From Deinococcales bacterium (lineage in GTDB: Bacteria > Deinococcota > Deinococci > Deinococcales > JAAFIG01): a stretch of DNA of 64,000 bases. This document shows, piece after piece, positions 183-38,348 of the stretch. Where the stretch lies: positions 108,782-172,781 of the forward strand of contig JANNVX010000041.1 in assembly GCA_031414595.1 (NCBI GenBank), read 5' to 3'. The notes under the pieces are model-generated. The model saw nothing but the letters and a program-made list of their open reading frames with translations. It was not told the DNA's origin and ran no database searches. Positions within the stretch are counted from its first letter, which is position 1; the number at the start of each line of letters is the position of its first letter. Both the position numbers and the translations under genes were made by a program.

Positions 183-244
183 GGGCAAGGCTTCTTGCCC
201 ATAAACGCGCACCTAACGGGCATGGTCGCATGCCTTGCCCCTAC
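183..244 (-). repeat. GTAG-type REP hairpin interrupted by a 38-nt mini-element (192-229)
   Basis: GGGCAAGGC|38-nt insert|ATGCCTTGCCCCTAC. Removing the insert restores a hairpin like the empty REP at 265-288. Confidence 0.85.
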
Positions 245-264
245 GGTTTAGAACAGCTTTTACC

Positions 265-288
265 GTAGGGGTGAGGCATGCCTCACCC
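265..288 (+). repeat. GTAG-type REP hairpin (empty), inverted partner of 183-244
   Basis: GTAGGGGTGAGGCATGCCTCACCC. Confidence 0.85.
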
Positions 289-366
289 TTTGCGGTCAAT
301 GATGATTCATTCCCAAATCGGGAAATTGATTTTAGATAAATCATAAACCTTCCTTTTTCCCTAGCA

Positions 367-1149
367 TCATGCTAGTACCTCATTTGGAATATCTTCGACT
401 TTCATTGCCCCTGTCATAATCGCAACCGTGTCGGACATGCTGATTTTCTTGGGATTAACCACGGCGGCGCGTTTACCAAGGCGTTGGACATGAATTCGGT
501 CGGCGATTTCAAAAACGTGTGGCATGTTGTGGCTAATGATAATCACAGGTAAACCACTTTCACGCACTCGGCGGATTAAATCGAGTACCATATTGCCTTC
601 TTTGACCCCTAAAGCGGCAGTTGGTTCGTCCATAATCACCACATGGCGGGCAAAGGCAGCACTGCGAGCCACAGCCACACCTTGACGCTGCCCACCAGAT
701 AAGGTCTCGACCGCTTGGCTCATGCTGCGAATACCTATTTTTAAGCCAGCCATGTGATTGGTGGCTTCTTCTAACATTTTTTTGTGGTCAATCACCCGAA
801 AGAGTTTTGCTAAGAAGCCCGGGCGCAGAATTTCGCGTCCTAAAAATAAGTTCTCGGCTATCGTCATGGCGGGGGCAACCGCTAGGTCTTGATAAACCGT
901 TTCGATGCCGTGCTGCCGTGCATCTATTGGGCTACGGAATTTGACGGGTTTACCATCGAGCATTATCTCGCCAGAATCGGGAATGGTTGCGCCAGACAGG
1001 GCTTTAATTAAACTGCTTTTGCCCGCGCCATTATCACCAATCACAGCCAGGATTTCACCGGCTCGCAGTAAAAAATCTGTGCCATCCAAGGCGGTCACTT
1101 GTCCGTAACGTTTGACCAGATTTTTAGCTTCAAAAATCGTCTCTGTCAT
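367..1149 (-). CDS. frcA: Sugar ABC transporter ATP-binding protein, single domain (FrcA-like)
   Basis: Walker A GDNGAGKS, LSGGQRQ signature, MDEPTAALG, SHN. Start placed at MTETIF (1149) just after the permease stop; the longer ORF overlaps the permease. Confidence 0.85.
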   Translation of the reverse strand: MTETIFEAKNLVKRYGQVTALDGTDFLLRAGEILAVIGDNGAGKSSLIKALSGATIPDSGEIMLDGKPVKFRSPIDARQHGIETVYQDLAVAPAMTIAENLFLGREILRPGFLAKLFRVIDHKKMLEEATNHMAGLKIGIRSMSQAVETLSGGQRQGVAVARSAAFARHVVIMDEPTAALGVKEGNMVLDLIRRVRESGLPVIIISHNMPHVFEIADRIHVQRLGKRAAVVNPKKISMSDTVAIMTGAMKVEDIPNEVLA

Positions 1150-1151
1150 AC

Positions 1152-2150
1152 TCACCTCGAGTTCTTGCCTTTTGAAAGTTGGTCTACCGCCACAGCCACA
1201 ATCACCAGTACACCAGTAATCAGAATTTGTACCTCGGAACGTGCGCCCATCAGGGTTAAGCCACTGCGAAAAACCCCACTGATTAACGCCCCAACAATTG
1301 TACCAATCAGTAAACCGCGCCCACCGAACAGGCTTGTGCCGCCAAGTACCACTGCCGTTATCGAGTCTAAATTCTCGGTCTGTCCTGCGTTGGGGTTGCC
1401 AATGCCGTATCTCGAGACCGATAACCAACCCGCAATGCCGTAAATCAGTCCAGCCAAGGTATAAACCATCAGTAAGACCCGTTGGGTTGGAATGCCAGTC
1501 AAACGAGCCGCTTCTGGGTTGTTGCCAACCGCGTACAAGTGTCTACCGGGGGCGGTGTTACTTAAAGCCCATGAAATAGCAGTGAATAAAAAAAGTGTTA
1601 AGGCAATGCCCGTGCCGTAGCCAATGGTGATACCACCAATTGCAATATCTTGTTTGAACCACAATAAAATCGAAGATTCATCACTGACCGTAATGGTTTG
1701 GGCTTGGGTGTAAATTTGGGTGATCGCAAAAGCGATATTCAGTGTGCCAAGCGTGACAATAAACGGTGGAAGTTTTAAGGTTGTGACCAGTAAGCCATTC
1801 AAGAAACCAAAGCCAGTGCTGACGGTTAAGCCAATCAGTAAACTAACAGGGGCTGGCAAACCAAAATCGGCGGCGAGTTTGGTCATTAACATTGTACTGA
1901 GCGCCATCACCATACCGCAAGATAAATCAATCCCACCGGTTAGAATAATCAGGGTTTGTCCAATTGCCAGCACCGCCACAACCATGACCTGCGAGATGAT
2001 TAAAGCGCCATTATTGGGGGTGAGAAAATTAGGATGTTGGGTTGCGAAAAATCCAATCGATAAGAACAGTGCCAAAATTGGACCAAGTACCGAAATACTC
2101 GGTAGTTTCTCGAGCCAATTGTTTTTATTTTGTGTGCCTTGGTTTGTCAT
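1152..2150 (-). CDS. frcC: Sugar ABC transporter permease (RbsC/FrcC-like)
   Basis: GGIDLS, LPPFIVTLG, GR.LYAVG.N.EAARL.G and LGGTSLFGGRG motifs; multi-TM. Confidence 0.85.
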   Translation of the reverse strand: MTNQGTQNKNNWLEKLPSISVLGPILALFLSIGFFATQHPNFLTPNNGALIISQVMVVAVLAIGQTLIILTGGIDLSCGMVMALSTMLMTKLAADFGLPAPVSLLIGLTVSTGFGFLNGLLVTTLKLPPFIVTLGTLNIAFAITQIYTQAQTITVSDESSILLWFKQDIAIGGITIGYGTGIALTLFLFTAISWALSNTAPGRHLYAVGNNPEAARLTGIPTQRVLLMVYTLAGLIYGIAGWLSVSRYGIGNPNAGQTENLDSITAVVLGGTSLFGGRGLLIGTIVGALISGVFRSGLTLMGARSEVQILITGVLVIVAVAVDQLSKGKNSR

Positions 2151-2212
2151 ATTCACCCTGACTTTACTCTTTTTGGAGTGATTGAATCGCACTCGATGCT
2201 CGAGTGATTGAG

Positions 2213-2238
2213 AAGAGGGCGCGAATTTGCGCCCTCTT
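2213..2238. terminator. Intergenic hairpin between the binding-protein and permease genes
   Basis: AAGAGGGCGC-GAATTT-GCGCCCTCTT, 10-bp perfect stem. Confidence 0.55.
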
Positions 2239-2346
2239 TTGTGCTTGGAGGAGTGGGAAACCCGTCACCCCTCGAGACGGATTTCCCAGATATGAAGTCG
2301 TTTTCCTCGAGCCTCATAGCCCATAGCTCAAGACTCAAAGCTCTTC

Positions 2347-3336
2347 TTAGTTGCCCCAGCAGTTGGCAAGTCCGAATGCGACATTCTTGCTACCAATACC
2401 GACCAAAGCACGCTTGGCAATTAAGGTCACGCCAGTGTCCACATAGCCCTTGGCTTTGACACCAGTCTTGGCGTATTTGACACCCGCAGCCACACCCAAA
2501 GCAGCCATTTTCAGTGGGTATTGTTGGCTGGTTGCCACAATCACGTTCTTGTCTACGTTACGAACGCCTTCACAGCCACCGTCTACGCTAAAAATAGCGG
2601 CGGTTTTCTTGGCAGCTTTAAGGGCTTGGAATGCACCTGCGGCGGCTGGTTCGTTGATCGTGTAAACCACGTTAATGTCTGGGTTTTTCTGCAAGCAGTT
2701 TTCCATGGCGGTTTGACCTTTGGCTTGGTCGCCGAAGGTATCTTGGCTGCATACAACTTGGGCAGTGGTGGCAAGGTCTGCTGTGTCTGCGTCTATGTTA
2801 TCTGCGCCTAAACCAGCCAAAAAGCCGTTGTGACGAGCAATCCCAACTGGATGACCAGGGAAAAGGTCGAGCATCGCAATTTTAAGGGTTTTGCCTTTGA
2901 GTTGGGCGGCGGCGTATTCACCAATCAGAACGCCAGCCTTAAAGTTGTCGGTAGCATAGAGTGCGTCTACGGCATCGGCTGGTTCGGTTGGGCTGTCAAG
3001 CGCAATCACTTGAACACCAGCCGCTTGGGCTTTTTTGATGGCTGGAACGATTGCCTTAGAATCTGATGGGGTAATCAGAATAGTTTGTGCGCCAGCCGCT
3101 ACAAAGTTCTCAATCGCAGCCACTTGCCCAGCGTTGTCACCGTCTTGCTTACCGGCAGCACTTAAGAATTTTGCACCCAAACGAGCCGCTTCTTTTGAAG
3201 CACCTTCTTTCATTTTGACAAAAAACGGGTTGGATTCGGTTTTGGTGATTAAACCAATGATTGGTGACTTGCCTTGGGCAAGTGCCAATGCCAAGGTGCT
3301 TACGCCAAGGGCAGCTAACAGAGCAATTTTACGCAT
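2347..3336 (-). CDS. frcB: Sugar ABC transporter substrate-binding protein (FrcB-like)
   Basis: Signal peptide; LITKTESNPFFVKMKEGA, VYTINEPAAAGA, SVDGGCEG and SQQYPLKMA are typical of FrcB. Confidence 0.85.
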   Translation of the reverse strand: MRKIALLAALGVSTLALALAQGKSPIIGLITKTESNPFFVKMKEGASKEAARLGAKFLSAAGKQDGDNAGQVAAIENFVAAGAQTILITPSDSKAIVPAIKKAQAAGVQVIALDSPTEPADAVDALYATDNFKAGVLIGEYAAAQLKGKTLKIAMLDLFPGHPVGIARHNGFLAGLGADNIDADTADLATTAQVVCSQDTFGDQAKGQTAMENCLQKNPDINVVYTINEPAAAGAFQALKAAKKTAAIFSVDGGCEGVRNVDKNVIVATSQQYPLKMAALGVAAGVKYAKTGVKAKGYVDTGVTLIAKRALVGIGSKNVAFGLANCWGN

Positions 3337-3412
3337 GGTGGTTCTCCTATTTTGAAAGAGGGCGAATGACCGAAAATCTGACGGATAATTGAACGCCTAA
3401 ATTACTCGTTCG

Positions 3413-4432
3413 TTAAGAAAGCACTTGGATGGGCGGTGGAGCGGTGCTAAAGCGTTGAATAAAGTTGGTGGCTAAACGAATCTGAATCGGTTTTTGGGTT
3501 CTGCCACGCTCGAGTCGGTCAAGTAAGGTTTCGCAGGCAAGGTAAGCCAATTCGTAAGCTGGTTGGGCGACCACGGTAATACTGGGTTGTAAGAGTTTTG
3601 CCCAACGTGAATCGTCAAAACCAACAATGCTTAGGTCGGCAGGGATAACCAGTCCTAAATCTCTGGCGGCAAAAATTGCCCCAATCGTCATTTCGTTGTT
3701 TCCGACAAACAGGGCGGTTGGGCGTTCACCTTCGGGTCTCGAGAGCAGATTATGGGTAGCTAAGCGTCCACCGTCTTCACGATGATTGCCAGTTTGTACG
3801 AGGTCGTCACGGTACGTGATACCCGCTTCGGCGAGGGCTTCTTTATACCCAGTATGGCGCTCGACGGCGGTAGATATATCAAGGCTACCTGCAATCATGC
3901 CAATCCGTTTGTGTCCAAGGCTGGTCAGGTGTTGCACGGCGGTTCTCGAGCCGCCAATGTTATCTACCATGATTGTGTGTGCGCCTTTCAGTCCACTGGC
4001 ACGGTCAAGTTCGATAACTGGCAAGTTGCCAATTAAACCTAAGTTTTCTTGTGCGCCAGCCGTTGGCATGATAATTAAACCTTGTGGCATGTGGCTGCGT
4101 AGACTCTCTAGGGCTTTGCGTTCTTTATCCGAGTCTTCGTCGGTGTTAAACATAAAGACGGTATAATCGCGTTTGGCAGCCGCATCTTGAACCCCTTTGG
4201 CGAGCATCGCGTTACCGGGGTTCAGCACATCGGAGATGATTAGACCAATGCTCTGGCTTTGTCCGCGCCGCAGCGCACTGGCTAACTGATTGGGCTGGTA
4301 GCCAAGTTGATTGGCAATCTCGAGAACCCGTTCGCGGGTTTTGGTGTTGACCAAATCCGGACGGGTAAACGCCCTCGAGACGGTGGCTCGAGAAACTTGG
4401 GCGAGATTGGCTACTTGGTCTACATCAATCAT
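3413..4432 (-). CDS. LacI-family transcriptional regulator
   Basis: HTH VANLAQVSRATVSRA, LGYQPN..A..L, DLSIVGFDD. ATG at 4432 has an AAGGA RBS. Confidence 0.9.
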   Translation of the reverse strand: MIDVDQVANLAQVSRATVSRAFTRPDLVNTKTRERVLEIANQLGYQPNQLASALRRGQSQSIGLIISDVLNPGNAMLAKGVQDAAAKRDYTVFMFNTDEDSDKERKALESLRSHMPQGLIIMPTAGAQENLGLIGNLPVIELDRASGLKGAHTIMVDNIGGSRTAVQHLTSLGHKRIGMIAGSLDISTAVERHTGYKEALAEAGITYRDDLVQTGNHREDGGRLATHNLLSRPEGERPTALFVGNNEMTIGAIFAARDLGLVIPADLSIVGFDDSRWAKLLQPSITVVAQPAYELAYLACETLLDRLERGRTQKPIQIRLATNFIQRFSTAPPPIQVLS

Positions 4433-4444
4433 TATGGTGTCCTT

Positions 4445-4574
4445 TTGCAATCGAATGCAGTTATCTCGAGGCGAAAAGTAGACATAGAAGGCTTTTTTTG
4501 CCTAAATTTATACTTTTTCGACTTTGTATTGCAATCGTTTGCAAAGTATACGCAGTTTGCAAGACGGTTTGCAA
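4445..4574. promoter_or_regulatory. Three LacI-type palindromic operators
   Basis: TTGCAATCGAATGCAG (4445-4460), TTGCAATCGTTTGCAA (4529-4544), TTGCAAGACGGTTTGCAA (4557-4574); central CG typical of LacI-family sites. Confidence 0.7.
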
Positions 4575-4650
4575 GTATCTTGGAATACATAAGGTTAAGG
4601 ACACAAACCCAAAGAACTCGTAGTCTCGAGAAACACGCTAGAATCAGACC

Positions 4651-6255
4651 ATGCACCTATTATCAACCAATCCTTACGCCAGTCACCGTCACTCGAGTTA
4701 CGGCACATATGGCGCGGTTGCCACCAGCCAAGCGCTGGCGGCTCAGGCTGGGCTGCAAATACTGCGGGCTGGAGGAAACGCGGTAGATGCGGCGATTGCC
4801 ACTGCCGCTTGCCTAACGGTGGTTGAACCCACCAGCAATGGTATCGGCGGCGATGCCTTTGCCCTTGTTTGGGATGGCACAAAACTGCATGGTTTGAACG
4901 CTTCGGGACGCTCTCCACAGAATCTTTCAAAAACACTGCTCGAGGGGCAAGGACACAGCACCATGCCACAACAAGGCTGGCTCAGTGTGACTGTACCAGG
5001 AGTACCCGCCGCTTGGCGAGATTTACACCAGAAATTTGGACGCTTACCGTTTGAAGAACTGCTCGAGCCAGCTATTTTCTATGCCGAGCATGGGTTTGTG
5101 GTTTCAAGTACCGTCGCCAGATTCTGGGCGTATGCTGCCCAAAAATATGCACTGCTCGAGGGGCAAGAATTTAAGCCTTGGCTCGATACCTTTACAAGAG
5201 ATTCACGTAGCCCACAAGCGGGTGAAAAGTTCTTAATGCCAGACCATGCCAGAACTTTGCGCCGAATCGCCCAAACTTACAGCCAAGATTTTTATACAGG
5301 CAGCCTCGCCCAACAAATCGAAGATTTTGCAGCCCAGACTGGCGGGGTCATCACCCAAGCCGATTTACGCGCCCACAGCAACACTTGGGTTGACCCAATC
5401 GGCACCAATTATCGGGGCTATGATGTTTGGGAAATCCCACCCAACGGACAAGGGATTGCCACTTTAAGCGCCCTCAATATCCTTGAAGGTTTTGATTTGT
5501 CGCGTCTGGCTCGAGACAGCGTGGAAAGTTATCATTTACAACTCGAAGCCATGAAACTCGGGTTTTCCGATGCCTTAGCCTATGTTGCCGACCCGACTCG
5601 AGTGAGTGTCCCTACGGCTGGGCTGCTGGATAAAGCCTATGCTGCCGAGCGCCGAGCCCTGATTGGTGAAATGGCATTGCTGCCTAGCCCCGGACAACCA
5701 CCCAAAGGCGGCACGGTCTACTTATGCACTGCCGATTCAGACGGGATGATGGTCAGTTATATCCAAAGTAATTACGCTGGTTTTGGCAGTGGGATTGTGA
5801 TTCCAAATACGGGTATTGCCCTGCAAAACCGAGGCGCAAATTTTAATCTCGAGACCAACCACCCAAACTGTTTTGAACCAAATAAACGCCCCTACCACAC
5901 GATTATTCCAGCTTTTCTAAGTAAAGATAACCAAGCCATCGGCGCTTTTGGGGTGATGGGCGGATTTATGCAGCCGCAAGGACACCTGCAAATGATTGTC
6001 AACACCATAGATTACAACTTGCATCCACAAGCAGCCCTAGACGCACCACGTTGGCAATGGACGGAACAAAAAAACATTGAACTCGAGATGCAGACCCCAC
6101 AACATCTTGCCCAAGCACTACGCGCCAAAGGACATAATGTACACCTTCAACTCGAGAGTGGCAGTTTTGGACGCGGACAGATTGTTTGGAAAATTGGCGA
6201 TGCCCTGATAGCAGGGACAGAATCCAGATGTGACGGTGCAGCCTTGGTGTACTGA
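4651..6255 (+). CDS. ggt: Gamma-glutamyltransferase family protein (YwrD/HpxW-like)
   Basis: GGNAVDAAIA, VEPTSNGIGGD, GG|TVYL autoprocessing Thr, KRPYHTIIP, GVMGGFMQPQGH. Confidence 0.88.
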   Translation: MHLLSTNPYASHRHSSYGTYGAVATSQALAAQAGLQILRAGGNAVDAAIATAACLTVVEPTSNGIGGDAFALVWDGTKLHGLNASGRSPQNLSKTLLEGQGHSTMPQQGWLSVTVPGVPAAWRDLHQKFGRLPFEELLEPAIFYAEHGFVVSSTVARFWAYAAQKYALLEGQEFKPWLDTFTRDSRSPQAGEKFLMPDHARTLRRIAQTYSQDFYTGSLAQQIEDFAAQTGGVITQADLRAHSNTWVDPIGTNYRGYDVWEIPPNGQGIATLSALNILEGFDLSRLARDSVESYHLQLEAMKLGFSDALAYVADPTRVSVPTAGLLDKAYAAERRALIGEMALLPSPGQPPKGGTVYLCTADSDGMMVSYIQSNYAGFGSGIVIPNTGIALQNRGANFNLETNHPNCFEPNKRPYHTIIPAFLSKDNQAIGAFGVMGGFMQPQGHLQMIVNTIDYNLHPQAALDAPRWQWTEQKNIELEMQTPQHLAQALRAKGHNVHLQLESGSFGRGQIVWKIGDALIAGTESRCDGAALVY

Positions 6256-6256
6256 T

Positions 6257-7579
6257 TTACTTCCTAAATTTTAGGGCATTGACTTTAGCCCCAATGCAAC
6301 GCCCTTGCTCGAGACCCTGTTCAATGGCGGCTCGGAAATGAATTCCACCATACAGCCTCGAGATGCCAGCTTCGTTAGCCGCTTCGGTAAACGACTTATA
6401 ACTGCGTGGCTCGAGTCCGTTATCTGAACCTGTGCGGTCGGTGAAAGCATATTTCTCGCCAAAAAAAGTGGTCAGGACACTGGCGGCGGCACTGCTTTGG
6501 GTGCTGTGACCACTCGGGTATTCTGGGAATGGTGGAATCAGCAAAATGGTTTCAAAGGTCGAGTCTATGTGCCGACGAATATAGGTACTGGGACGCAATA
6601 AATTGTAAATATACTTGGTGTGCCAGCAACCAATAAAGGCATCATTGACCGCCAGTCCAACGCGGGCTTGGAGTTCGGCAAACTGCTCTAAGCCAAGGTT
6701 TTTATCAAGCGCCAGATTTAGGGCAATGCTAATCCAATGTCCGGGCGGGGTGATGGTTAGCATCGGGTCGTCAGACCAAAATCGGGCAATTTTCTTCTGC
6801 TCAGGACTGATATTTTTGACGGTGTTGTAAACTTCTAATGCCTCTTTATAGAACGCCGAATCTTTTTCGCTCGAGTAGGTGGGAGGGGCTGGGAGGGGGC
6901 AGTCATTACCAGTTTTCATGACCAATGGGCGGTTATTACCCCAAGCTGGCAAAAGTGGGGTTTGCTGCATCCCAAGGGCTGCGGTTGGGACCCATTGTTC
7001 TGGCTTGGTGGCTTTAGGATAAGTGAGCGGGAAACCCAAGTTGCTGATGGTTGCCCCACCGTCTGTTTTGGCAAACTCGAGGATTTGTTGGGCTGCCAAA
7101 CGCCCATAATTCAGGCTGCGCTCGAGAACATCTTGAGGCATAGATTTTGCCAAATCTTGGGCAATACGGTTTTTAACAATTGTCAGCACCCGTTGCCCGG
7201 TCGGACCAGTATTGCCGTACAAAGCCTCCATACTGCTCGAGAATGCCCCGTGCAGAACAGCCGCGTTGTTGTACTTTTGTTTTGGGTCTGGTTTGGTAAT
7301 CCCGCGAAATCCTTGAACTTGCCCCTCGAGTGAACGCAGGGTTTTACTGTTTACAGCAACCAATTCGTGCATCGTTAAACCGACATAAGCAAAGGTACGG
7401 GCAGCCACTGGTGGCGAGTAAGTCGCAGTGTGACGGGTTAAATCAAGCATCAGGGTGTACCATTGGGTTGCCACACGCATCTCGAGCGGCAAACTGGGGG
7501 TGTTATTCTGAGCGCCAGAATGACCTAAGAAAGCCAAACTCGAGCCAAACAGCACAAGAAGTGCAAACTTTGTTTTCAT
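6257..7579 (-). CDS. Secreted vanadium-dependent haloperoxidase / PAP2-superfamily protein
   Basis: WHTKY...LRP, PPFPEYPSGH and SRLYGGIHF vanadate/phosphate-binding motifs; signal peptide from MKTKF (7579). Confidence 0.8.
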   Translation of the reverse strand: MKTKFALLVLFGSSLAFLGHSGAQNNTPSLPLEMRVATQWYTLMLDLTRHTATYSPPVAARTFAYVGLTMHELVAVNSKTLRSLEGQVQGFRGITKPDPKQKYNNAAVLHGAFSSSMEALYGNTGPTGQRVLTIVKNRIAQDLAKSMPQDVLERSLNYGRLAAQQILEFAKTDGGATISNLGFPLTYPKATKPEQWVPTAALGMQQTPLLPAWGNNRPLVMKTGNDCPLPAPPTYSSEKDSAFYKEALEVYNTVKNISPEQKKIARFWSDDPMLTITPPGHWISIALNLALDKNLGLEQFAELQARVGLAVNDAFIGCWHTKYIYNLLRPSTYIRRHIDSTFETILLIPPFPEYPSGHSTQSSAAASVLTTFFGEKYAFTDRTGSDNGLEPRSYKSFTEAANEAGISRLYGGIHFRAAIEQGLEQGRCIGAKVNALKFRK

Positions 7580-7604
7580 GTATTTTTTGTACCATAAATT
7601 ACAC

Positions 7605-8420: not shown

Positions 8421-8516
8421 GGTCTGTATTCTAAACAAAAGTTCTTCTGGCATTGCTAAGAATAAATTACTTCCTTTTGGGACACATGACAGCCCAATGC
8501 TTGTTACGATTTTTTC

Positions 8517-9536: not shown

Positions 9537-9584
9537 GCTATGAGCTTGAGGGTTAAACGGTTAAAGGGTGAAAAGGTTAAAGTT

Positions 9585-26475: not shown

Positions 26476-27162
26476 TTAATTCTCGCCACCAGACCCAAGC
26501 CGATAACCAACGCCCCGCACAGTTTGCAGTAAATCGCCACAAGTCCCCATGCGCGAACGCAAATTGCGAATATGGGTGTCTATGGTGCGTTCATCCAAGT
26601 TGTTGATGCTGATGCCGTCCAATAACTCGAGCCGACTAAACACCCGTCCGGGGCGACTGGCAAGCACTGCCAGTAGATGAAAATGAGTTCGGGTAAGTTG
26701 TAATTCGTTTAACCCACAACCTGCAACAAAAGATTCTAAATCCAAGCTCAGTTCACCCACTTGAACTCGAGGGCGTTCTTTGGGGGCAGTTTTAGCGACT
26801 CTGCGTAAAACAGTTTTGACCCGCAGCAGCACTTCTCGAGGACTAAATGGCTTAATGATGTAATCGTCTGCCCCAAATTCTAAGCCCAGCAAGCGGTCTA
26901 TTTCTTCGACTTTGGCACTGAGGATAAGAACAGGCACATCGGATTCATGACGAATGGTTTTTAGTACCTCGAGACCATCTGGGGCGGGAATCATGATGTC
27001 TAATAAAATCAGTTGCGGACGGGCTGCCCGCCAAAGCTCGAGCGCTCGCTTCCCAGAACTCGCCCGTTCGGTGCGGTAGCCAGCCGTTTGCAAACCACGC
27101 TCGAGCAGGTCAGCAATCCGTGGTTCGTCTTCGACAATTAAAATCAGTTCTGATGTGTTCAA
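26476..27162 (-). CDS. OmpR-family response regulator (BaeR-like)
   Basis: ILIVEDE, LLDIM, GADDYIIKPFS, TIDTHIRNLR, TVRGVGY; TTG start is a best guess. Confidence 0.9.
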   Translation of the reverse strand: MNTSELILIVEDEPRIADLLERGLQTAGYRTERASSGKRALELWRAARPQLILLDIMIPAPDGLEVLKTIRHESDVPVLILSAKVEEIDRLLGLEFGADDYIIKPFSPREVLLRVKTVLRRVAKTAPKERPRVQVGELSLDLESFVAGCGLNELQLTRTHFHLLAVLASRPGRVFSRLELLDGISINNLDERTIDTHIRNLRSRMGTCGDLLQTVRGVGYRLGSGGEN

Positions 27163-29860: not shown

Positions 29861-29960
29861 CTGTTTATTTTGGTGCTTCTCGAGCCAAATAGCCACAGTG
29901 TTCTGGCTTAAGCGCAAAGACCGATACCAAACCTGCATAATTGTACTAGACTCGAGTCTC

Positions 29961-30959
29961 ATGTCCATCGAACTCTTGGTTTTAGGTCAATCTGGCAACG
30001 ACAACGCCGCTTTGGTGCGAATTGATACAGGGCAGGCGATTCACCGTTTACTCTTTGACTGCGGACAAGATGTTCTAAACTCTCTCGAGTACAACGAAAT
30101 TTTGTCAATAGACCATCTGTTCTTCTCGCATTTGCACATGGATCATATTGCGGGTTTCGATGCGCTTTTTCGTGGCTTGTACGCCCGTACCCATAAACCC
30201 AATTCAATTTGGGGTCCAGACCAAACGGCTCGGATTTTACAGCACCGTTTTTGTGGCACACTCTGGAATTTGCATGAGGGCATGAACGCCACATGGTTGG
30301 TGCATGACATTCTTGAGGAGCAGATTCGTACCTACCGATATGAATTAGCCGATGCCTTTGAAAATGCCTATTTAGAACCCAAAAAACCACGTTCCAAATA
30401 TATTCTCGAGCATCCAGATTACAGTGTAGAAGTGATTATTCTTGACCACCGCACCCCAAGTCTTGCCTATGTGGTACGAGAAAAAGACCGAATCAATCTC
30501 GAGCCAGAAAAACTCAAAGCCCTTGGTTTAGAAGCTGGTGCATGGGTACGAGACCTCAAAAATTTGGAACTCCAAAAAGAAACATTGAACATTAACGGTA
30601 AAATCTATCCACTCGAGGCGCTACGTTCTGAGCTTTTAACCACGACCAAAGGCGATGCGGTGGCGTACTGCACCGATTTTATTCTTAACCAAGAAACAGC
30701 CAAAAAACTCATTCCAGCTTTACAAGGTGTGCGGTTACTGCTCTGCGAAAGTCAATATTTACACACCGACCTCGAGATGGCAGAGAAAAACTTTCACATG
30801 ACCAATAAACAAGTGGCAGAACTGGCAGCTTTGGCAGAGGTGCAGGAGCTACGGCTTTTTCATGTTTCTGACAGGTATTCAGCCCTCGAGCGCCAAATTT
30901 TACTCGAGCAAGCCAGAAGCATTTTTGCCAATGCCCATTATCCGAGTCATTGGGTATAA
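29961..30959 (+). CDS. MBL-fold metallohydrolase, RNase Z-like
   Basis: LLFDCG, SHLHMDH, LDH, YCTD, CE..Y, FHMT, FHVS.RY and a flexible-arm-like insert. Confidence 0.75.
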   Translation: MSIELLVLGQSGNDNAALVRIDTGQAIHRLLFDCGQDVLNSLEYNEILSIDHLFFSHLHMDHIAGFDALFRGLYARTHKPNSIWGPDQTARILQHRFCGTLWNLHEGMNATWLVHDILEEQIRTYRYELADAFENAYLEPKKPRSKYILEHPDYSVEVIILDHRTPSLAYVVREKDRINLEPEKLKALGLEAGAWVRDLKNLELQKETLNINGKIYPLEALRSELLTTTKGDAVAYCTDFILNQETAKKLIPALQGVRLLLCESQYLHTDLEMAEKNFHMTNKQVAELAALAEVQELRLFHVSDRYSALERQILLEQARSIFANAHYPSHWV

Positions 30960-31008
30960 ATGTCTGGGTATGAGTGACGCTCATCAAATACTTGAGTAAA
31001 CTAGGGGC

Positions 31009-32070
31009 GTGAGTTTACGAGTTACCCCTGTCACCAATCCCCTCGAGTGGGATGCCTTGGTTCAAACCTTTACTTATCATAGTGCGCTGCAAGGCTGGGG
31101 CTTTGGCGAAGCAAGGCGTGTTACAGCTTGGACACCGCACCGCCTAAAACTCGAGCGGGACGGCGTGGTTTTTGCAGCTGCTCAAGTGCTGCGCCGTTCG
31201 CAATACGGCTTAGGGTATTTGTACTGCCCCCGTGGACCTGCCCTAAACAGTCTGGGGGATTTACAGGATGTGGCAACTGCCTTAAAGTCATGGGCAAAAA
31301 TGACCGATGTCAGCCTCAAAATTGAGCCATGTGTACCAATTTCGTCACTTGGCGACCCAAGCATCATGCCCGAAAAAATCGGAGTTTGGAGTTTAGCCGA
31401 AACAATCCAACCCACCCACACGGTTTTAATCAGTCTCGAGGAAAGCGAAGATGTGCGCCTGTCCGCCATGCACCAAATGGCAAAACGCAACACCAAACAA
31501 AGCCTCAAAGAAGGTGTGACCGCCGAAACCGATGATGACTTCGAGGCATTCTGGGAACTTTTTAGCGAGACCAATACGCGCTCAAAATTGTTGCAACGCT
31601 CAAAAGCCTATTACCAAGCGATGTTCAAGGAGTGCGCCAAGTACGGTGGTGAAGCCAGAATCATCAATGCTCGCTGGAATGGTAAGGCGCTGGCAACCTG
31701 CTTTGTGATTGGGCTGGGCAACGAACTGTGTTACTTGTATGGCGGCAGTATCCGAGCCGAGCGTGAAGAAGGACAACGTGACCCGAAAGCCCCAAATGGC
31801 GCGTATTGGGGCATGATTCGGTTTGGGCTGTCTCGAGCCTACAAGACTTTGGATTTATACGGCATCCCGAAGCGCATAGACGAAAGCACAAGCGATAAAA
31901 TCAGCAATGGAGTCTATGAGTTTAAGATGCGGCTTGGTGGGCAAATGGCGTACTTTCCAGCTTATGAAATTGCACTTAATCCGCTATCATCTGCCGTCAA
32001 TACTGCCCTGCGCTGGCGGCGAAAAGCCATGAATCGTAAAGCTCGAGGGAACGAAAATGATGTCTTATAA
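31009..32070 (+). CDS. FemABX-family lipid II peptidyl(glycyl)transferase
   Basis: LQGW.FGE, YCPRGP, LKIEP, YLYGGS, DLYGI, GVYEFK..LGG. Confidence 0.85.
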   Translation: MSLRVTPVTNPLEWDALVQTFTYHSALQGWGFGEARRVTAWTPHRLKLERDGVVFAAAQVLRRSQYGLGYLYCPRGPALNSLGDLQDVATALKSWAKMTDVSLKIEPCVPISSLGDPSIMPEKIGVWSLAETIQPTHTVLISLEESEDVRLSAMHQMAKRNTKQSLKEGVTAETDDDFEAFWELFSETNTRSKLLQRSKAYYQAMFKECAKYGGEARIINARWNGKALATCFVIGLGNELCYLYGGSIRAEREEGQRDPKAPNGAYWGMIRFGLSRAYKTLDLYGIPKRIDESTSDKISNGVYEFKMRLGGQMAYFPAYEIALNPLSSAVNTALRWRRKAMNRKARGNENDVL

Positions 32071-32143
32071 AATAGTCTAACTCGGTCTTTTAAGCACGGG
32101 TTAAAAGTTTTGACGTGTACTTAGAAGGGTTATTTACTTTCAC

Positions 32144-33460
32144 CTAGCCCTTAAACCGCCCCATCAGTTGTTGCAAGCCACGTCCTTTGCTGCCGCGCAT
32201 CAGTTTCATCATGTCTTTCATTTGGTCATACATTTTGACCAAACGGTTCAGTTCCTGCACCGTGTTACCGCTTCCTACCGCGATGCGTTTTCGGCGTTGC
32301 CCGTCTATCAGTTTGGGATTACGGCGTTCTTTTAAGGTCATGCTTTGAATCATGGCTTCGATGCGCTTAAATTGTTTTTCGTCTACGTTTAAGTCATTAG
32401 GCAGCATTCGGCTCATACCGGGAATCATTTTCACTAAGTCGCCAATCGGACCCATTTTCTGAATACTTTTTAACTGCTCGAGTAGGTCTTCAAAGTCAAA
32501 TTCATTGGGTTTTTTCGGCGCAAAGGACTGAATATCGGCTTGTTGGGCGCGTTCAATCAGGGTCAGGACATCGCCCATACCAAGGATTCGTTGGGCAACC
32601 CGCTCTGGGTAAAATGGCTCGAGTCCGCCGATTTTTTCAGACACACCCGCAAACATAATCGGTTTACCTGTCACGCTTCTTGCCGATAATGCCGCGCCGC
32701 CACGAGCATCACCATCGAGTTTGGTCATGATTAAACCCGAAACACCAATTCGCGCATCGAAAGCCGATGAAACATTCAATGCCTCTTGTCCGGTCATGGC
32801 ATCCACGACTAAAAAGGTTTCCGATGGGCTTAACTGGGTTTTTAAGTCTGCTAGCGCGTCCATTAGCCCTTCGTCTATTTGCAAACGCCCGGCGGTGTCC
32901 ACAATCACCAAATCATGGAAATTGGTTCTTAGGTATTCTTCCAGTCTGGCTTTGGTGCTGCTGGGTGATTCGTTGTCTTGCACCTCGAGAACTGGTACAC
33001 CGACCTGTTGCCCTAAGACCTTGAGTTGGTCTCGAGCCGCAGGGCGTTGCGTGTCGGCTGCCACCAGTAGGGGTCTGCGACCTTTAGATTTATAAAATGA
33101 AGCCAATTTACCGGTAGTGGTAGTCTTACCCGCACCTTGTAAACCGACCATAAACCAGACGTTGCCTTCGGTTTTTAAGAGTGGCTGGCTGGCATCGCCG
33201 CCGAGCATTTCTCTAAGTTCGTCATAGACAATTTTAATCACTTGCTGACCGGGCGTTAGGCTGGTCAGGACTTCTTGCCCAACGGCTTTTTCTTGGACTC
33301 GAGCCACAAAGTCTTTGGCAACCGTAAAATTGACATCGGCTTCGAGCAGTGCCACACGAACTTCACGCAGGGCGGTTTTGACATCCGCATCGGTCAGTTT
33401 GCCGCGTTGACGCAATTTATCAAAAATATCTTGGAGTTTATTTCCTAGGGTTTCAAACAT
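32144..33460 (-). CDS. ffh: Signal recognition particle protein
   Basis: [33 protein letters not shown]-domain RRKRIA.GSG. Confidence 0.97.
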
Positions 33461-33512
33461 ACGCTATTGTATAGGCAAACGGCGCAAGAAAAAAGCCAAA
33501 ACTGATTAAACC

Positions 33513-33574
33513 GTAGGGGCGAGGCTTCTTGATTCTAAACGCGCACCTGTCGGGCAGAATCGCATGCCTCGCCC
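33513..33574 (+). repeat. GTAG-type REP hairpin interrupted by a 38-nt mini-element (33526-33563)
   Basis: GTAGGGGCGAGGC|TTCTTGATTCTAAACGCGCACCTGTCGGGCAGAATCGC|ATGCCTCGCCC. Confidence 0.88.
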
Positions 33575-33614
33575 GCTAACGCAATCCATTTTGGTTTATT
33601 GCCATAGTCATTTT

Positions 33615-34514
33615 TCAATCTGATTCTGACAATACCTGCAACCAAAGCGGGTATTCGGCTCGAGTTGTGCCGTTTCTAAAACGATCTAGGTGCTTGTTGC
33701 CGTACTCCATAAAGTCAAATTCAAGGCTCGAGATACCACTTTGTAAATACCCCCAAAAGGCTTCTCGAGCATCGGACACAAGGCGCATCAGTTGAACTTG
33801 GGCAAGCAAAATAGGGGTTATTTGCCCGTAATAAAGGCTAATCAGGTTTTGCAGTTCAATTTCGTTTAACTCGAGGTTCGCCGCCAAGTTACCAAGGTCA
33901 AAAGCGCAGTTGCTATTGCCAGCGTATTCCCAATCCACAATCCAAAGCTGGTTGGTGACTAAAATATTGGCGGGTAATAAATCGTTATGGCACGGCACAA
34001 TAACCGCATGAGGCTCGAGAATGGCTTTTATGTGTTGTAACTGCTCGAGAATTTGGGTCGTATCTTTTGGAAATTTGACGTGGTGTTCAAGCGCTAATTG
34101 ATGGTAATTTCGGATGGTTTCAAAGGCGCTAAAAGATTTAGGGAAGGCTGGGGCAGCATGAATTTTTTTCAGGGCGTTCAGGATTGCTTCAAGCTGCATT
34201 TTGGCTCTGGGGATGGTCAGTGTTTCGGCATTCTCGAGATAGCGGGTAAAAAGCGCCCCATGAATTTGCAGGTACGCCACGGGCTGAGCGCCGATGCCAA
34301 CCGAGTAAGCGGTGCTACTGCATTCAAATTCGCATTTGCGGTCTATCCCCAAAAGCTCGGTGCGTTCGCCCGGAACACGCAGCATATATGTGCCAGATGC
34401 GGCTTCTAGTTTGTAATTGCGGTTGGTGATGCCACCGGGGATGGCTTCTAGGCTAAGGATTTTGCCCACCAGCAATTGCACATCCTTGGTTAGTTCTCGG
34501 GTCAATTGGTTCAC
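33615..34514 (-). CDS. Choline/ethanolamine kinase-family phosphotransferase
   Basis: GGITNRNY, LRVPG, PCHNDLLPAN, IVDWEYAG, FDLGN. Confidence 0.85.
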   Translation of the reverse strand: MNQLTRELTKDVQLLVGKILSLEAIPGGITNRNYKLEAASGTYMLRVPGERTELLGIDRKCEFECSSTAYSVGIGAQPVAYLQIHGALFTRYLENAETLTIPRAKMQLEAILNALKKIHAAPAFPKSFSAFETIRNYHQLALEHHVKFPKDTTQILEQLQHIKAILEPHAVIVPCHNDLLPANILVTNQLWIVDWEYAGNSNCAFDLGNLAANLELNEIELQNLISLYYGQITPILLAQVQLMRLVSDAREAFWGYLQSGISSLEFDFMEYGNKHLDRFRNGTTRAEYPLWLQVLSESD

Positions 34515-34547
34515 AGTGTCTGGTAGTTTAGCCTGTTATGCTTATTC

Positions 34548-35915
34548 ATGCTCAAAATTTTAGATACAGCACAATCTTGGGATGTGATTGTTCTTGGTGG
34601 TGGCACGGCTGGGGCAATTGCCGCCATCAAAGCGGCTCGAGCCGGGGCTAAAACACTGGTGGTCGAAGCCCTAGGAAGCCTAGGCGGAACGGGAACAAAT
34701 GCCCAAGTGACCCCCTTAATGCGAAATATCTCGAGTGGCATTAACCTCAATCAAGGTTTAACCAACGAGCTTAAGACGCGGCTTTTTGCCCAAGGTGATG
34801 GTGCGACCGATATGCACAATAATGACAACTGGTTTAACCCCGAAGGCATGAAATATGTTCTCGAGCGAATGCTGGTCGAGTCCGGTGGGGATATTTTGTA
34901 CCACACCCATTTTGTGTCCCCTGAACTCGAGCAAGAGCGGGTGACGAGTGTGGTTGTGCATAACAAAGATGGTTTGGTGCGCTTAAAAGCCAAAGCCTTT
35001 ATAGATGCGACTGGCGATGCCGACTTGAGTGTTCGGGCAGGAGCGCCTTTTCAAGCTGGCGAAGCCGAAACGGGTTTACATCAAGCCATGAGTCTGCGCT
35101 TTATTCTGGGCGGGGTTGACCGCCAAAAACTTTGCGGGTTTTTAGCTAGGCACGGACAAGTTCAAGAATCCGAGCAGTTTATGCACTTTTGGATGGTTTG
35201 GGGCAAAAACGCCAGTCTTGAACCAATTTTCAAAAAAGCCGTCGAACAAGGTGTTCTCGAGGAACGTGACGGCGATTACTTTCAGGGTTTTAGTATCCCC
35301 GGAATGCCCAACTGTATCTCTTTTAATAATCCGCGTTTAGCCGAAGACATCAATGATGGCGCAGATGCTTGGACACTTTCCAGAGCGCAAATAGATGGCA
35401 AGCACGCGATTAACCGCCTTGTTAAATTCTTACGCAACACCTTTGAAGGTTGCGAGAACAGTTTTGTCTCGAGTTACGCTGCTATCCCCGGAGTACGCGA
35501 AACCAGACGAATCGAAGGTGAATACATGCTGACCTTAGACGACATTCTCGAGTGCCGCACCTTTGAAGACGCAATTTGCCGCAACCATTACCCTGTAGAC
35601 ATTCACACCCCACGCGGACAAAAGCTCTACCACGAACGTTCTGGCGACCTACCGTACTTCAAACCTGATGCCTTCCATGAAATCCCCTATCGTAGCCTGA
35701 TACCGCTTGGACTCGAGAATGTGCTTGTCCCCGGACGTTGTGCCAGTGCCACCTTTGAAGCTCAGAGCGCCATCCGAGTTCAACAGAACTGCCACAGCAT
35801 GGGCGAAGCGGCTGGACTGGCGGCAGCATGGATGGCAGAACAGAACTTAACTTCAAGGCAAGTCAACGCCCTCGAGTTACGGGCAGCCCTGAAAGCCGAC
35901 GGAGCGTATTTATGA
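34548..35915 (+). CDS. FAD-dependent oxidoreductase
   Basis: DVIVLGGGTAG, FIDATGDADL, GVRETRRI.G.Y, IPYRSL, GEAAG. Confidence 0.85.
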   Translation: MLKILDTAQSWDVIVLGGGTAGAIAAIKAARAGAKTLVVEALGSLGGTGTNAQVTPLMRNISSGINLNQGLTNELKTRLFAQGDGATDMHNNDNWFNPEGMKYVLERMLVESGGDILYHTHFVSPELEQERVTSVVVHNKDGLVRLKAKAFIDATGDADLSVRAGAPFQAGEAETGLHQAMSLRFILGGVDRQKLCGFLARHGQVQESEQFMHFWMVWGKNASLEPIFKKAVEQGVLEERDGDYFQGFSIPGMPNCISFNNPRLAEDINDGADAWTLSRAQIDGKHAINRLVKFLRNTFEGCENSFVSSYAAIPGVRETRRIEGEYMLTLDDILECRTFEDAICRNHYPVDIHTPRGQKLYHERSGDLPYFKPDAFHEIPYRSLIPLGLENVLVPGRCASATFEAQSAIRVQQNCHSMGEAAGLAAAWMAEQNLTSRQVNALELRAALKADGAYL

Positions 35916-35930
35916 GCAACGAGCAAATCA

Positions 35931-36013
35931 GGGCGAACACAAGGTTCGCCCCTACGGTTGGACACGACTTATTTTGCAATTTAATCGTTAGGGGCAGACC
36001 TCTGTGTCTGCCC
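35931..36013. repeat. Inverted pair of GTAG-type REP hairpins
   Basis: GGGCGAACACAAGGTTCGCCCCTAC (35931-55) and GTTAGGGGCAGACCTCTGTGTCTGCCC (35987-36013). Confidence 0.85.
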
Positions 36014-36051
36014 TGTAAGAAAACTTTTTTTAATATTCTCTTTAGGAATCC

Positions 36052-36807
36052 ATGCCTCTGCTCATTGACCTAAACGCCGATGCTGGTGAATCCTACGGAA
36101 CTTGGACGCTTGGACAGGATGCGGCGCTTTTTGGGTTTCTCTCGAGTGTCAACATCGCTTGTGGGTTTCATGCTGGCGACCCAAAGATGATATTGCAGAC
36201 CCTCGAGTTGGCAGAGCAGCATGGTTTAGCGATTGGCGCACATCCGGGCTTTCCAGATTTAATTGGTTTTGGCAGACGCGAAATGAACCTTGAAGCCAAT
36301 CAGATTTATGCCGATGTGCTGTATCAGATTGCGGCACTCGAGGGCATGACACAGGCTCAGGGTTTAAGGCTGCACCATGTCAAAGCCCACGGCGCACTGT
36401 ACAACCAAGCCGCCCGAAATCTAAGCACCGCCAAAGCCATTGCTAAAGCCGTCCATGATTTTGACTCGAGTTTGCCATTTGTTGGACTGCCCAATTCAAA
36501 ACTCGAGGAAGCTGCCACCGAATACGGCTTGCGATTCATCCCAGAAGCCTTTCCAGAACGCGGCTATGTGGATTCTGGGCAACTTGCACCACGCAGTATC
36601 AATGGCTCAAGTATTCACGACCCAGAACTGGCGGCGGCTCGAGCCGTACAGATGGCAAGGGGTTGGATTGAAACACTTGAAGGGCATATCCTCGAGATTG
36701 CGCCACAAACCTTGTGTATTCACGGCGATAACCCCAATGCTGTCGAGATTGCCAAGGCAGTCCGCCAAGCACTCGAGCAAGCAGGGTTTCAGGTTCGGGC
36801 TTATTGA
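36052..36807 (+). CDS. pxpA: 5-oxoprolinase subunit A (LamB/YcsF)
   Basis: IDLNADAGES, NIACGFHAGD, GAHPG.PD..GFGRR, HVKAHGALYN, LCIHGD. Confidence 0.92.
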   Translation: MPLLIDLNADAGESYGTWTLGQDAALFGFLSSVNIACGFHAGDPKMILQTLELAEQHGLAIGAHPGFPDLIGFGRREMNLEANQIYADVLYQIAALEGMTQAQGLRLHHVKAHGALYNQAARNLSTAKAIAKAVHDFDSSLPFVGLPNSKLEEAATEYGLRFIPEAFPERGYVDSGQLAPRSINGSSIHDPELAAARAVQMARGWIETLEGHILEIAPQTLCIHGDNPNAVEIAKAVRQALEQAGFQVRAY

Positions 36808-38348
36808 TGCGTTTAGGTCTTTACATTCCTTTTGCGGGTAAACCCGATGTGGCTGCCTCATCTCGAGCCTTAAATGCTGTTAAAGCCATGCGTGAACATC
36901 TGCTTGAGGGTATTACTGATATTATTCCAAGTTATTTGAATCTTTATTTTGAATTTGATACTCGAGTGACCACCAAAAAAGCTGTGCAGGATTGGGCATT
37001 GTCTTTTCTAAACCGTAGGGGTGGGGCTGTCTTGACCCTAAACACGCACCTGGCGGGCAGGGTCGCTTGCCTCGCCCAACCTAGCCAGTCCATAGAAATT
37101 CCAGTCCAGTACAACGGTCTTGACCTCGAGTTTATCGCCAAAAAAACAGGGTTGACCATCCCAGACATTATCCAAACCCACTCGAGCCATGTCTACCACG
37201 CTTTTGCCGTTGGTTTTACGCCTGGTTTTCCGTTTCTTGGTGTGTTACCGCCCCCTTTGCATTTGCCGCGTCGAGAAAACCCTCGAGCAAGAGTAGAGGC
37301 ACATTCGGTGGGGATTGCCATGGCGCAAACCGGTGTTTATCCGTTCTCGAGTCCGGGCGGTTGGCATCTGCTCGGTACTTCTGGTGTAGCAATGTTTGAC
37401 CCGCACCGAGAACCGCCATTCTGGGTGCAAGCGGGTGATGCCGTGCGTTTTGTGCCAGTCCAACAAGTACAAATCCCGACCCTCGAGTCAGTATCGTTGT
37501 TGCCACTCGAGCCAAAATTCCCAGTCTTAAAACTCGAGCAGGCGGGTTTGCAGACCTTGTTGCTCGATGCTGGGCGGGTACAGGTCGGTCATCTTGGTTT
37601 GGCGCAGTCGGGGGTACTTGACGCTAGAAGTGCGGCTCGAGCAAATGCCGTTGTGGGCAACGCAGCAGACGCGCCACTGCTCGAGCTAACCCTGCTTGGT
37701 GGGGTATTTACGGCACTGCGTGATGTGGTGCTTGGCTTTGCGGGGTACGGTATGAATCCAATTTTGAATGGTGAAATAATACCCGCCGCCTCGAGTTTTT
37801 TATTGCGCCGTGGACAAACCCTGTCTTTTAAGCCGAGCAGTACGGGGGTGCGTGGTTATTTGAGTGTCGCGGGTGGTTTTGAGGGCGTACCGATGTGGAA
37901 TAGTATCAGTTCAGATGCTCGGGCGAGTTTGGGGCGAGCTTTACAAGCGGGGGATGTGCTTGGGGCAAGGTTGCTTAAATCCGTCCGAGCAGGTTTTTAC
38001 CTATCACAACCGAGTCTCGAGCCTAGGGCTTTTCGACTTCTTCAAGGGGCGCAAGCCAATCCCGAGGCTTTTGTAGCCCTGACCAGTGCCAATTTTACGG
38101 TTGAAGGCGGCGACCGGATGGGTTTGCGTTTATCGGGGGCGTTGCTGGGTGGCGGTGATGTTCCCAGTGAAGCTACCCCGCTTGGTGCGGTACAAATCAC
38201 ATCTGGTGGGCAACCGATTATTTTGCTGCATGACCGTGGGCGGATGGGCGGCTACACCAAGCCAGCCGTGGTGCATCCAGCCGATTTATGGCGCTTAGCG
38301 CAACTGCGAGATGGTCAGGGTTTGCGATTCTCGAGATTTTTGCACTGA
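36807..38348 (+). CDS. Fused 5-oxoprolinase subunits B/C (carboxyltransferase domains)
   Basis: IPVQY, GFTPGFPFLG, YP..SPGGW.LLG (PxpB); LELTL.G, RGYLSVAGG, DRMGLRL, GAVQI...GQPI, GGY (PxpC). Confidence 0.88.
   Translation: MRLGLYIPFAGKPDVAASSRALNAVKAMREHLLEGITDIIPSYLNLYFEFDTRVTTKKAVQDWALSFLNRRGGAVLTLNTHLAGRVACLAQPSQSIEIPVQYNGLDLEFIAKKTGLTIPDIIQTHSSHVYHAFAVGFTPGFPFLGVLPPPLHLPRRENPRARVEAHSVGIAMAQTGVYPFSSPGGWHLLGTSGVAMFDPHREPPFWVQAGDAVRFVPVQQVQIPTLESVSLLPLEPKFPVLKLEQAGLQTLLLDAGRVQVGHLGLAQSGVLDARSAARANAVVGNAADAPLLELTLLGGVFTALRDVVLGFAGYGMNPILNGEIIPAASSFLLRRGQTLSFKPSSTGVRGYLSVAGGFEGVPMWNSISSDARASLGRALQAGDVLGARLLKSVRAGFYLSQPSLEPRAFRLLQGAQANPEAFVALTSANFTVEGGDRMGLRLSGALLGGGDVPSEATPLGAVQITSGGQPIILLHDRGRMGGYTKPAVVHPADLWRLAQLRDGQGLRFSRFLH
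37015..37077 (+). repeat. REP hairpin plus 39-nt mini-element (37028-37066), in frame inside pxpBC
   Basis: GTAGGGGTGGGGC|TGTCTTGACCCTAAACACGCACCTGGCGGGCAGGGTCGC|TTGCCTCGCCC. Confidence 0.85.

Follow-up and report, generated by a model that had tools for sequence, protein, structure and literature searches.

The 64,000-nt stretch of Deinococcales DNA analysed here (hereafter the window) contains seven copies of a mini-element of 38–39 nt with no gene inside. This mini-element is real, recently active and structurally constrained, and it is independently mobile within the genus. It enters its targets precisely and without target duplication, usually after a C and before a T or an A, and with a preference for the 5' side of hairpin loops. 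An earlier reading of the letters of the window alone (the sequence-only reading) had proposed a single mini-element family entering the loops of repetitive extragenic palindromes (REPs), and this proposal holds, as three REPs in the window and 20 of the 77 genomic matches to one GTAG-tagged REP type (REP1) carry the element.

Structure and covariation of the mini-element

The most common plan, type A, is T(G)-TCTTG / 5' arm / linker / GC(A)CC-TNNC-GGGC / 3' arm / GC. The 5' end is T, sometimes TG, and the G of the invariant TCTTG tag is the first base of an outer helix of 6–7 bp, in which the sequence is free but complementarity is kept. The linker is 5–6 nt long (e.g. AAACGC), and the inner hairpin, GC(A)CC-TNNC-GGGC, is invariant and contains a bulged A. 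Type B (39 nt) follows the plan of type A and has GCTCACA/TGTTCGC as arms and a pyrimidine mismatch (TC/TC) that is conserved; the inner bases of its arms covary (AC/GT, GT/AC and AT/AT, as read by eye from the sequences).

All seven copies claimed for the window exist, three in REPs and four in a nest, and all lie on the + strand. Copy 1 (38 nt; 192..229) has the arms GCCCAT/ATGGTC with one mismatch, lies between C191 and A230 and scores 47.9 bits with model R1. It splits in the loop a REP1 copy (183..244) whose GTAG tag is on the − strand, such that AAGGC and ATGCC flank the insert. Copy 2 (38 nt; 33526..33563; 50.4 bits; arms GATTCT/AGAATC) resides in the loop of the REP1 copy at 33513–33574, with the junction GAGGC / ATGCC. 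Copy 3 (39 nt; 37028..37066; 54.4 bits; arms GACCCT/AGGGTC), which starts with TG-TCTTG, resides in the loop of the REP1 copy at 37015–37077, with the junction GGGGC / TTGCC. An empty REP1 with the loop CATG (265..288, + strand) forms the inverted partner of the REP split by copy 1 and is also found in the related genome G001. The three split REPs and the empty one are thus present as the sequence-only reading had described them. The four-copy nest (157 nt; 52658..52814, + strand) comprises an outer copy (52658–52680, 52759–52766 and 52806–52814), a second copy within the loop of the outer copy (52681–52703 and 52743–52758), a B-type copy within the loop of the second copy (52704–52742) and another B-type copy located 3' of the CGGGC of the outer copy (52767–52805). 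The invariance of TCTTG, GCACCT-NN-CGGGC and the terminal CGC, also part of the sequence-only reading, applies to all seven copies, and the arm pairs that it listed (GATTCT/AGAATC, GACCCT/AGGGTC, GACCAC/GTGGTC, GACCC/GGGTC, and GCCCAT/ATGGTC with its mismatch) were verified in the window.

The core pattern was matched six times in the window compared with 1.06 expected matches, and none of 100 shuffles reached six. One of these six matches (27062–27074, with one mismatch) was rejected as a copy, having neither TCTTG nor arms. In copy 1, the change of one arm base (GCCCAT instead of GACCAT) brings the 5' end of the element into pairing with the left half of the REP that it splits, and the DNA fold of positions 183–200 prefers GGGCAAGG/CTTGCCC. 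In Logan contigs from four runs (possibly the source sample), 33100–52795 was identical and no element-free allele was found, a result that is uninformative on excision or expression; the joints listed in these contigs are cross-matches between repeat copies.

Covariation was analysed with 56 distinct type-A copies from the window and relatives (21 genome handles including G000, the genome surveyed below), which span five genera of the family and one genus of Deinococcaceae. In the MAFFT alignment, the arm covariation was 0.286 versus 0.125 (sd 0.012) in shuffled alignments, none of 500 of which scored as high, and slid controls gave 0.041–0.161. The model-fitted alignment (63 distinct rows), which is biased towards the assumed structure, yielded 0.311 versus 0.114 (again 0/500) and 86 cells with double-sided change compared with 26.6 in shuffles. 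Five of the six outer pairs show change on both sides; the four inner pairs are without variation and thus uninformative on pairing, but they mark invariant sequence. Kinship among sequences can by itself push such scores above those of shuffles without any structure, but the slid controls speak against this artefact here, as does the count of independent arm types. Among 109 distinct type-A sequences from G000 and its relatives, ~20 arm pairs that differ from one another are perfectly complementary, and the first five arm pairs are Watson–Crick in 525 of 545 cells, with wobble in only five (G-T in three and A-C in two). The claim that the stem arms covary is therefore borne out in a larger alignment, with pairing rather than sequence being kept.

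The invariance of the inner hairpin and the covariation of the arms would also fit selection on the unit as a functional signal in RNA or DNA (for example a terminator, a stabiliser or a protein-binding site), with spread as a secondary matter, and the intergenic position of many copies is in line with this explanation. No Rfam match, however, was obtained in the window at the gathering score, nor at 52600–52860 even at E≤1, and the copies show no uniform orientation relative to the flanking genes (28/19/11/10). There are hardly any wobble pairs. Furthermore, copies reside in frame in at least ten genes and inside one another, and recent gains differ between close relatives. A selected signal is thus a highly improbable explanation, and the small structured RNA that the sequence-only reading had offered as an option finds no backing in the Rfam search, the orientations or the wobble count.

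Insertion sites, hosts and distribution

Empty and filled states of the same site were found for several copies. The site of copy 1 (192–229) is empty in G001, whose flanks are ~92% identical, and in G005, both of which have the intact REP GGGCAAGGC-ATGCCTTGCCC; the filled site differs by exactly 38 nt, inserted at C|A. For copy 3 (37028–37066), the same gene in G007 has the empty REP GTAGGGGCGGGGC-TTGCCTCGCCC at the corresponding position (+39 nt, C|T). Two further sites in G000 are occupied by 39-nt insertions at C|T, namely C98:88030, where G001 and G003 have the empty REP, and C98:90461, where the insertion is off-centre and G007 has the empty REP. The nest (+157 nt, C|T) is absent at the orthologous place in G005, G007, G004 and G001. 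It is located after ..GCC and before TTAC, behind a terminator-like hairpin, and four insertions have occurred at this spot since the divergence from a relative that is ~94% identical in the flanks. No target duplication was found at any of the orthologous empty sites, with boundaries ambiguous by at most 1–3 bases. Site 33526 was rejected as a clean empty site, as G005, the closest relative, lacks the REP, the element and ~40 further nt there. The same nuo spacers contain different copies in other orientations in other relatives, indicating that the gains were repeated and lineage-specific. At the orthologous place of copy 3, a different REP variant is found in G005, G001 and G004, and any REP is missing from G003 and G006. 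That variant, a GTAG hairpin (GTAGGGGCG then ACGGAGCTTCAAGCGACG and GGGG) at the same spot of the PxpB-like gene in these three genomes, occurs in seven copies in G000.

In total, 114 intact copies were identified in G000 (4.49 Mb in 120 contigs) after four of the 118 places matched by a tolerant pattern had been set aside as false; the full pattern gave 73 matches genome-wide compared with one for a reversed control pattern. Junctions were compared in a set of 103 events with distinct flanks. The base preceding the insert is C in 78 of them, under a 5' boundary rule that prefers C where two readings are possible, and the first inserted base is T in 95; the element ends with C. The dinucleotides of the host are C|T (50 events), C|A (18), T|T (8), C|C (7), T|C (7), G|T (4), C|G (3) and others (6), and the 18 C|A sites confirm the earlier remark that a strict CT rule fails. 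Where paralogous empty sites exist, they support the boundaries (blastn). When the inserts were removed and 60 nt refolded as DNA, the junction lay within a hairpin loop in 57 of the 103 events, compared with 443 of 1500 random C|A or C|T sites, which were mostly in coding DNA. The usual geometry places the junction one base past the 5' stem, as in REP1 (C|ATG), a third REP type (C|TTGT) and the element itself (GCACC|TNNC); CGGGC|T and GC|ACC are other sites at which the element targets itself. The view that REPs are the target was correct but too narrow, as insertions also occur in coding DNA, in the tail of a terminator, and in hairpins other than REPs, among them the loop of the element itself.

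REP1 has the GTAG-tagged consensus GTAGGGGCGAGGC-ATGCCTCGCCC. Relative to the GTAG tag of the host REP, copy 1 is in the opposite sense and copies 2 and 3 are in the same sense; genome-wide, 8 REP1 inserts are in the same sense and 12 in the opposite one (read by eye from the printed sequences), so both orientations occur, as had been claimed. A second type, REP2, contains the element in 17 of its 97 matches, and ~14 of these 17 copies agree in their junction (GGGGT then GTCTTG) and in extended flanks, based on which they have probably spread together with their REP. The co-amplified subset fits a long-loop REP variant that spreads only with REPs, and REP families with long self-complementary loops have been described by Di Nocera et al. 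(PMC3733652). As a general explanation, this variant is contradicted and scarcely credible; it holds for the REP2 subset only. Empty orthologous REPs exist, 44 of the 103 events lack a GTAG tag within 150 nt, copies are nested in copies, and the REP1-hosted copies comprise several arm subfamilies in both orientations and at different positions. The diversity of the REP1-hosted copies, together with the empty orthologous REPs at four sites, indicates that the insert-bearing REPs do not form one clade. A single such clade, which the sequence-only reading had named as the outcome that would speak against it, is therefore not seen for REP1, whereas it does fit ~14 of the 17 REP2 copies.

Nested or truncated copies form 17 clusters, each on one strand only, and no copy was found inside another in the opposite sense when the printed sequences of the 17 clusters were inspected by eye. 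Extra 5' halves (two or three before one 3' half) stop at the internal GCACC|T, as expected if the internal C|T is used as an alternative end. At two places in G000 (C1:38597-38703 and C8:11436-11519), two or three GCACC-ended 5' halves precede one complete copy, and the 3' half of the host is missing; these forms could reflect the movement of half-elements or a partial tandem duplication. Head-to-tail arrays of 3–5 copies with a period of 37–39 nt were found at L046, L055, L060, L073 and L075 (in G149, G010, G012, G009 and G003, respectively), and the array units in the Deinococcaceae genus g19 are joined by a single G rather than T. Tandem arrays of this kind in relatives favour spread without a dedicated enzyme, by slippage, template switching between hairpins or gene conversion, with the arms kept by within-hairpin repair. 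The extra 5' halves could likewise be partial tandem duplications, and the scarcity of wobble pairs fits templated correction. Enzyme-free spread is nevertheless quite improbable in view of the identical exact ends at unrelated unique sites and in the lineages of different relatives, the invariant tag and hairpin that accompany changing arms across genera, and the site rule, which holds at most junctions.

Some copies reside within genes. In the window, a fused 5-oxoprolinase-type carboxyltransferase open reading frame (ORF; 36804..38348, + strand; Pfam CT_C_D and CT_A_B; PxpB/C-like) reads in frame through REP1 and copy 3, which together comprise 63 nt or 21 codons. Ten copies keep the frame of an ORF whose Pfam domains either bracket the copy or lie upstream of it, with a long tail behind. 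The hosts are the PxpB/C-like fusion, a MetH linker, an AMP-binding enzyme, a tandem NUDIX protein, an XdhC-YHS protein, a 6-phosphogluconolactonase, an N6-methylase-type enzyme, the tail of NuoC, a TPR regulator and an IS110 transposase. All ten in-gene copies add 39 or 36 nt, lengths found in 59 of the 103 events overall, and the chance of ten frame-compatible lengths out of ten is ~0.004 by simple arithmetic; frame-breaking copies have evidently been removed by selection. In-frame REPs in housekeeping genes (L236–L243) occur both with the mini-element and without it. Insertions of 13 codons are tolerated in REP loops and coding linkers, and such elements can thus reshape proteins.

The pattern was searched for in 364 genomes of the phylum. 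The other genomes of the family were all positive (18/18, with 1 to 251 matches each), as were the three genomes of the Deinococcaceae genus g19 (11–40 matches each), whereas 0–2 matches per genome were found elsewhere in the phylum, compared with 0–1 for the reversed control pattern. The arms in g19 are different (GGCCCA/TGGGCC and GGAGCT/AGCTCC), but the tag and the inner hairpin are unchanged; these two parts are invariant in five genera and one Deinococcaceae genus while the arms change. In a wider contig scan (596 Gb), stretches with several matches occurred, among the matches listed, only in metagenome-assembled genomes of Deinococcales bacteria, and the listed matches outside Deinococcales were single, which is about what chance predicts for a 16-base pattern by our own arithmetic. 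Viral contigs were rejected as carriers, as none of their 32 pattern matches had complementary arms and these matches appear to be chance occurrences in conserved genes.

Candidate enzymes for movement of the element

Whether the element is a non-autonomous mobile element that is moved in trans as single-stranded DNA (ssDNA) by an HUH-Y1 enzyme of the REP-associated tyrosine transposase (RAYT)/IS200 kind is, in our estimate, evenly balanced. The element would move as ssDNA, and folding would bring both of its ends, each a C|T junction, to the foot of the outer helix. The HUH-Y1 enzyme would cut at C|T, with the 5' T held on its tyrosine, and the excised piece would be joined into a further C|T or C|A that is exposed. 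This enzyme would act in trans and might be one of the two RAYTs of the genome or an unrecognised protein, for which the invariant hairpin and the TCTTG tag would be the likely recognition marks, in a REP-like layout of a 5' tag and an irregular palindrome of free sequence. A more specific form of this proposal, a minimal single-hairpin HUH transposon dependent on the REP system that a RAYT or an unrecognised Y1 enzyme excises as a 38–39-nt ssDNA circle, cutting the two C|T junctions that the outer helix brings together, and pastes into exposed C|T or C|A sites in hairpin loops, is put forward only tentatively, being somewhat doubtful. The element may depend on the REP enzymes, as in the parasite of the REP system that the sequence-only reading suggested.

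Single-strand cutting and joining by a RAYT-like enzyme is suggested by the C|T and C|A footprints, which match published RAYT cleavage sites. [quoted passage not shown] A Marinomonas RAYT cleaves both CT and CA, according to PMC8266576. Two intact RAYT-like genes were identified in G000, both on the − strand. RAYT-1 (C98:106767-107468; L023:1417-2121) shows DHVH and YIRNNP as motifs and matches Pfam Y1_Tnp, and RAYT-2 (C109:4189-4776; L245:287-892), identified by protein search, has the motifs DHIH and YILENP. Both ORFs hold GTAG REPs in frame just after the HUH motif, a REP1-like hairpin in RAYT-1 and REP2 copies in RAYT-2; REPs inside the gene are described as a trait of RAYT subclass 2.4 (PMC6006769). 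RAYT-1 was the only match in a search of G000 for the Y1_Tnp family, and no Y1 gene of other than the RAYT kind was seen. One of the RAYT-like genes is located between putative hsdS-like and hsdM-like type I restriction ORFs, as judged from the sequence. Eight pairs of copies lie 150–3000 nt apart, and since only a broken IS110 gene and ordinary genes were found between them, these pairs provide no candidate partner gene.

Several observations weigh against movement by a RAYT-like enzyme. The mini-element does not occur within ~2 kb of either RAYT gene, and its TCTTG tag comes without the GTAG that the studied RAYTs require. RAYT homologues are present in 63 of the 364 genomes of the phylum, many of which are element-free, and G005 (84% complete) has 56 pattern matches and no RAYT match. 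As for the site rule, 25 of the 103 events are not after C, the REP2-hosted clade is at T|C, and the boundary rule itself favours C in ambiguous cases. GTAG REPs within 150 nt show no excess on the strand of the element (43 versus 45 on the other strand), and no orientation bias was detected relative to GC skew (p 0.44) or gene strand, although these are weak tests in a draft genome. Moreover, single copies are not more stable than shuffled sequences (copy 1, z +0.2 to +0.6); as their folding energy is unremarkable, the case for structure rests on covariation.

The element may instead be moved by an enzyme other than an HUH-Y1 protein, such as an IS110-type bridge-RNA recombinase with a CT core, a tyrosine recombinase that acts on folded single strands in the manner of integron attC sites, or a hairpin-specific nuclease (e.g. 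Ssn) acting with a ligase. IS110-family elements target REPs, one IS110-family gene is present in G000, and a duplicated CT core is an equally good reading of the junctions at C|T targets, all of which favour this explanation. The only IS110 gene found (C42:2486-3636; L024) is, however, frameshifted and itself hit by elements at three places: the Transposase_20 domain contains an in-frame B-type copy, one copy lies in the non-coding region upstream, and a truncated nest is located further upstream. The gene appears to be a victim of the element. In addition, C|A targets would give unequal 'cores', and a double-stranded circle of 38 bp appears physically implausible. The Ssn system illustrates that REP-like repeats can have non-HUH partners (PMC11893778), but no G000 gene has the element on its flanks as ssnA has NTS. 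Movement by a non-HUH-Y1 enzyme is thus unlikely, and an HUH-Y1 enzyme of the RAYT/IS200 kind is retained as the working proposal.

Apart from these systems, a marked excess of CTCGAG was observed (369 occurrences in the window versus 13.9 expected from the base composition, and 23,235 versus 972 in the genome), with GAGCTC occurring six times.

Comparison with known systems

The element resembles the REPs that are associated with RAYTs. It is a short repeat that forms a hairpin, with an irregular palindrome of free sequence behind a conserved 5' tag, its junctions coincide with the published C|T and C|A cleavage sites of RAYTs, and it is high in copy number, lineage-specific and found in frame in genes. 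Unlike REPs, it carries TCTTG rather than GTAG and a second, invariant hairpin within a single 38–39-nt unit; it inserts into REP loops and into itself, and no linkage to the RAYT genes is seen, these being occupied by REP1 or REP2 instead. Families of REPs with long loops (PMC3733652) may represent the same phenomenon seen from the REP side.

Along with REPs, the small dispersed repeats (SDRs) of Nostocaceae are the closest precedents; they resemble the element in being very small, gene-less, precisely inserted and reportedly mobile. Elhai et al. (2008, Genome Res 18:1484) are reported to have described SDR4–6 as repeats of 21–27 nt that nest in one another. To our knowledge, neither a C|T rule nor a link to an enzyme has been proposed for SDRs. 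The element belongs to another phylum and is longer, in a comparison based on descriptions of the SDRs. SDR5 is reported to enter the HIP1 palindrome between its bases 3 and 4 (PMC4390886), and according to PMC5861425 SDRs were not found outside Nostocaceae.

IS200/IS605 transposons and their gene-less derivatives, as portrayed in PMC8266576 and PMC6006769, likewise generate no target duplication, insert in an oriented manner, use hairpins with an unpaired base as marks and move as ssDNA. They have two subterminal hairpins and a target of 4–5 nt at the left flank, whereas the left flank of the element is fixed only at C and a single outer helix spans the whole unit. IS1397, ISKpn1, IS621 and others also use REP hairpins as landing sites, according to PMC3116915 and, for IS621, the sequence-only reading, but these are full insertion sequences with their own transposase, compared with a gene-less element of 38–39 nt. 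Rickettsia palindromic elements and in-gene REPs are hairpin repeats tolerated in frame in functional genes (as described in PMC3733652); here, by contrast, a smaller second element resides inside an in-gene REP or alone in a linker. The NTS/SRM repeats that PMC11893778 associates with Ssn GIY-YIG nucleases are oriented hairpin repeats with a conserved flanking tag and are recognised as ssDNA. The element differs from them in tag and sequence, and no element-flanked gene was found, Ssn homologues not having been searched for. From miniature inverted-repeat transposable elements (above ~70 bp), it is set apart by its far smaller size, its exact gain of 38 or 39 nt without duplication and the internal position of its inverted arms. 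No paper on a TCTTG-tagged or Deinococcales element was found in a literature search aimed at SDR, RAYT and Ssn work, which would miss any paper filed under different terms.

The element therefore belongs with the REP/SDR kind of repeats, yet it is a different variant, with neither the GTAG tag nor the arrangement of a REPtron. The mechanism of REP dissemination is described as poorly understood, even though RAYTs cut and join DNA in vitro (PMC8266576, PMC3479197). The element offers what REPs rarely do, namely exact donor ends, exact empty and filled orthologous sites and a simple site rule, along with clearly separated invariant and free parts and recent, repeated activity, and the clear site rule makes the mechanism testable. 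If the element is indeed an HUH transposon of this kind, its clean orthologous sites, empty or filled, would for the first time show natural traces that RAYT-type strand transfer leaves in vivo and would provide a direct handle on the movement of REP-like and SDR-like repeats. The element adds a second phylum to the SDR phenomenon of cyanobacteria.

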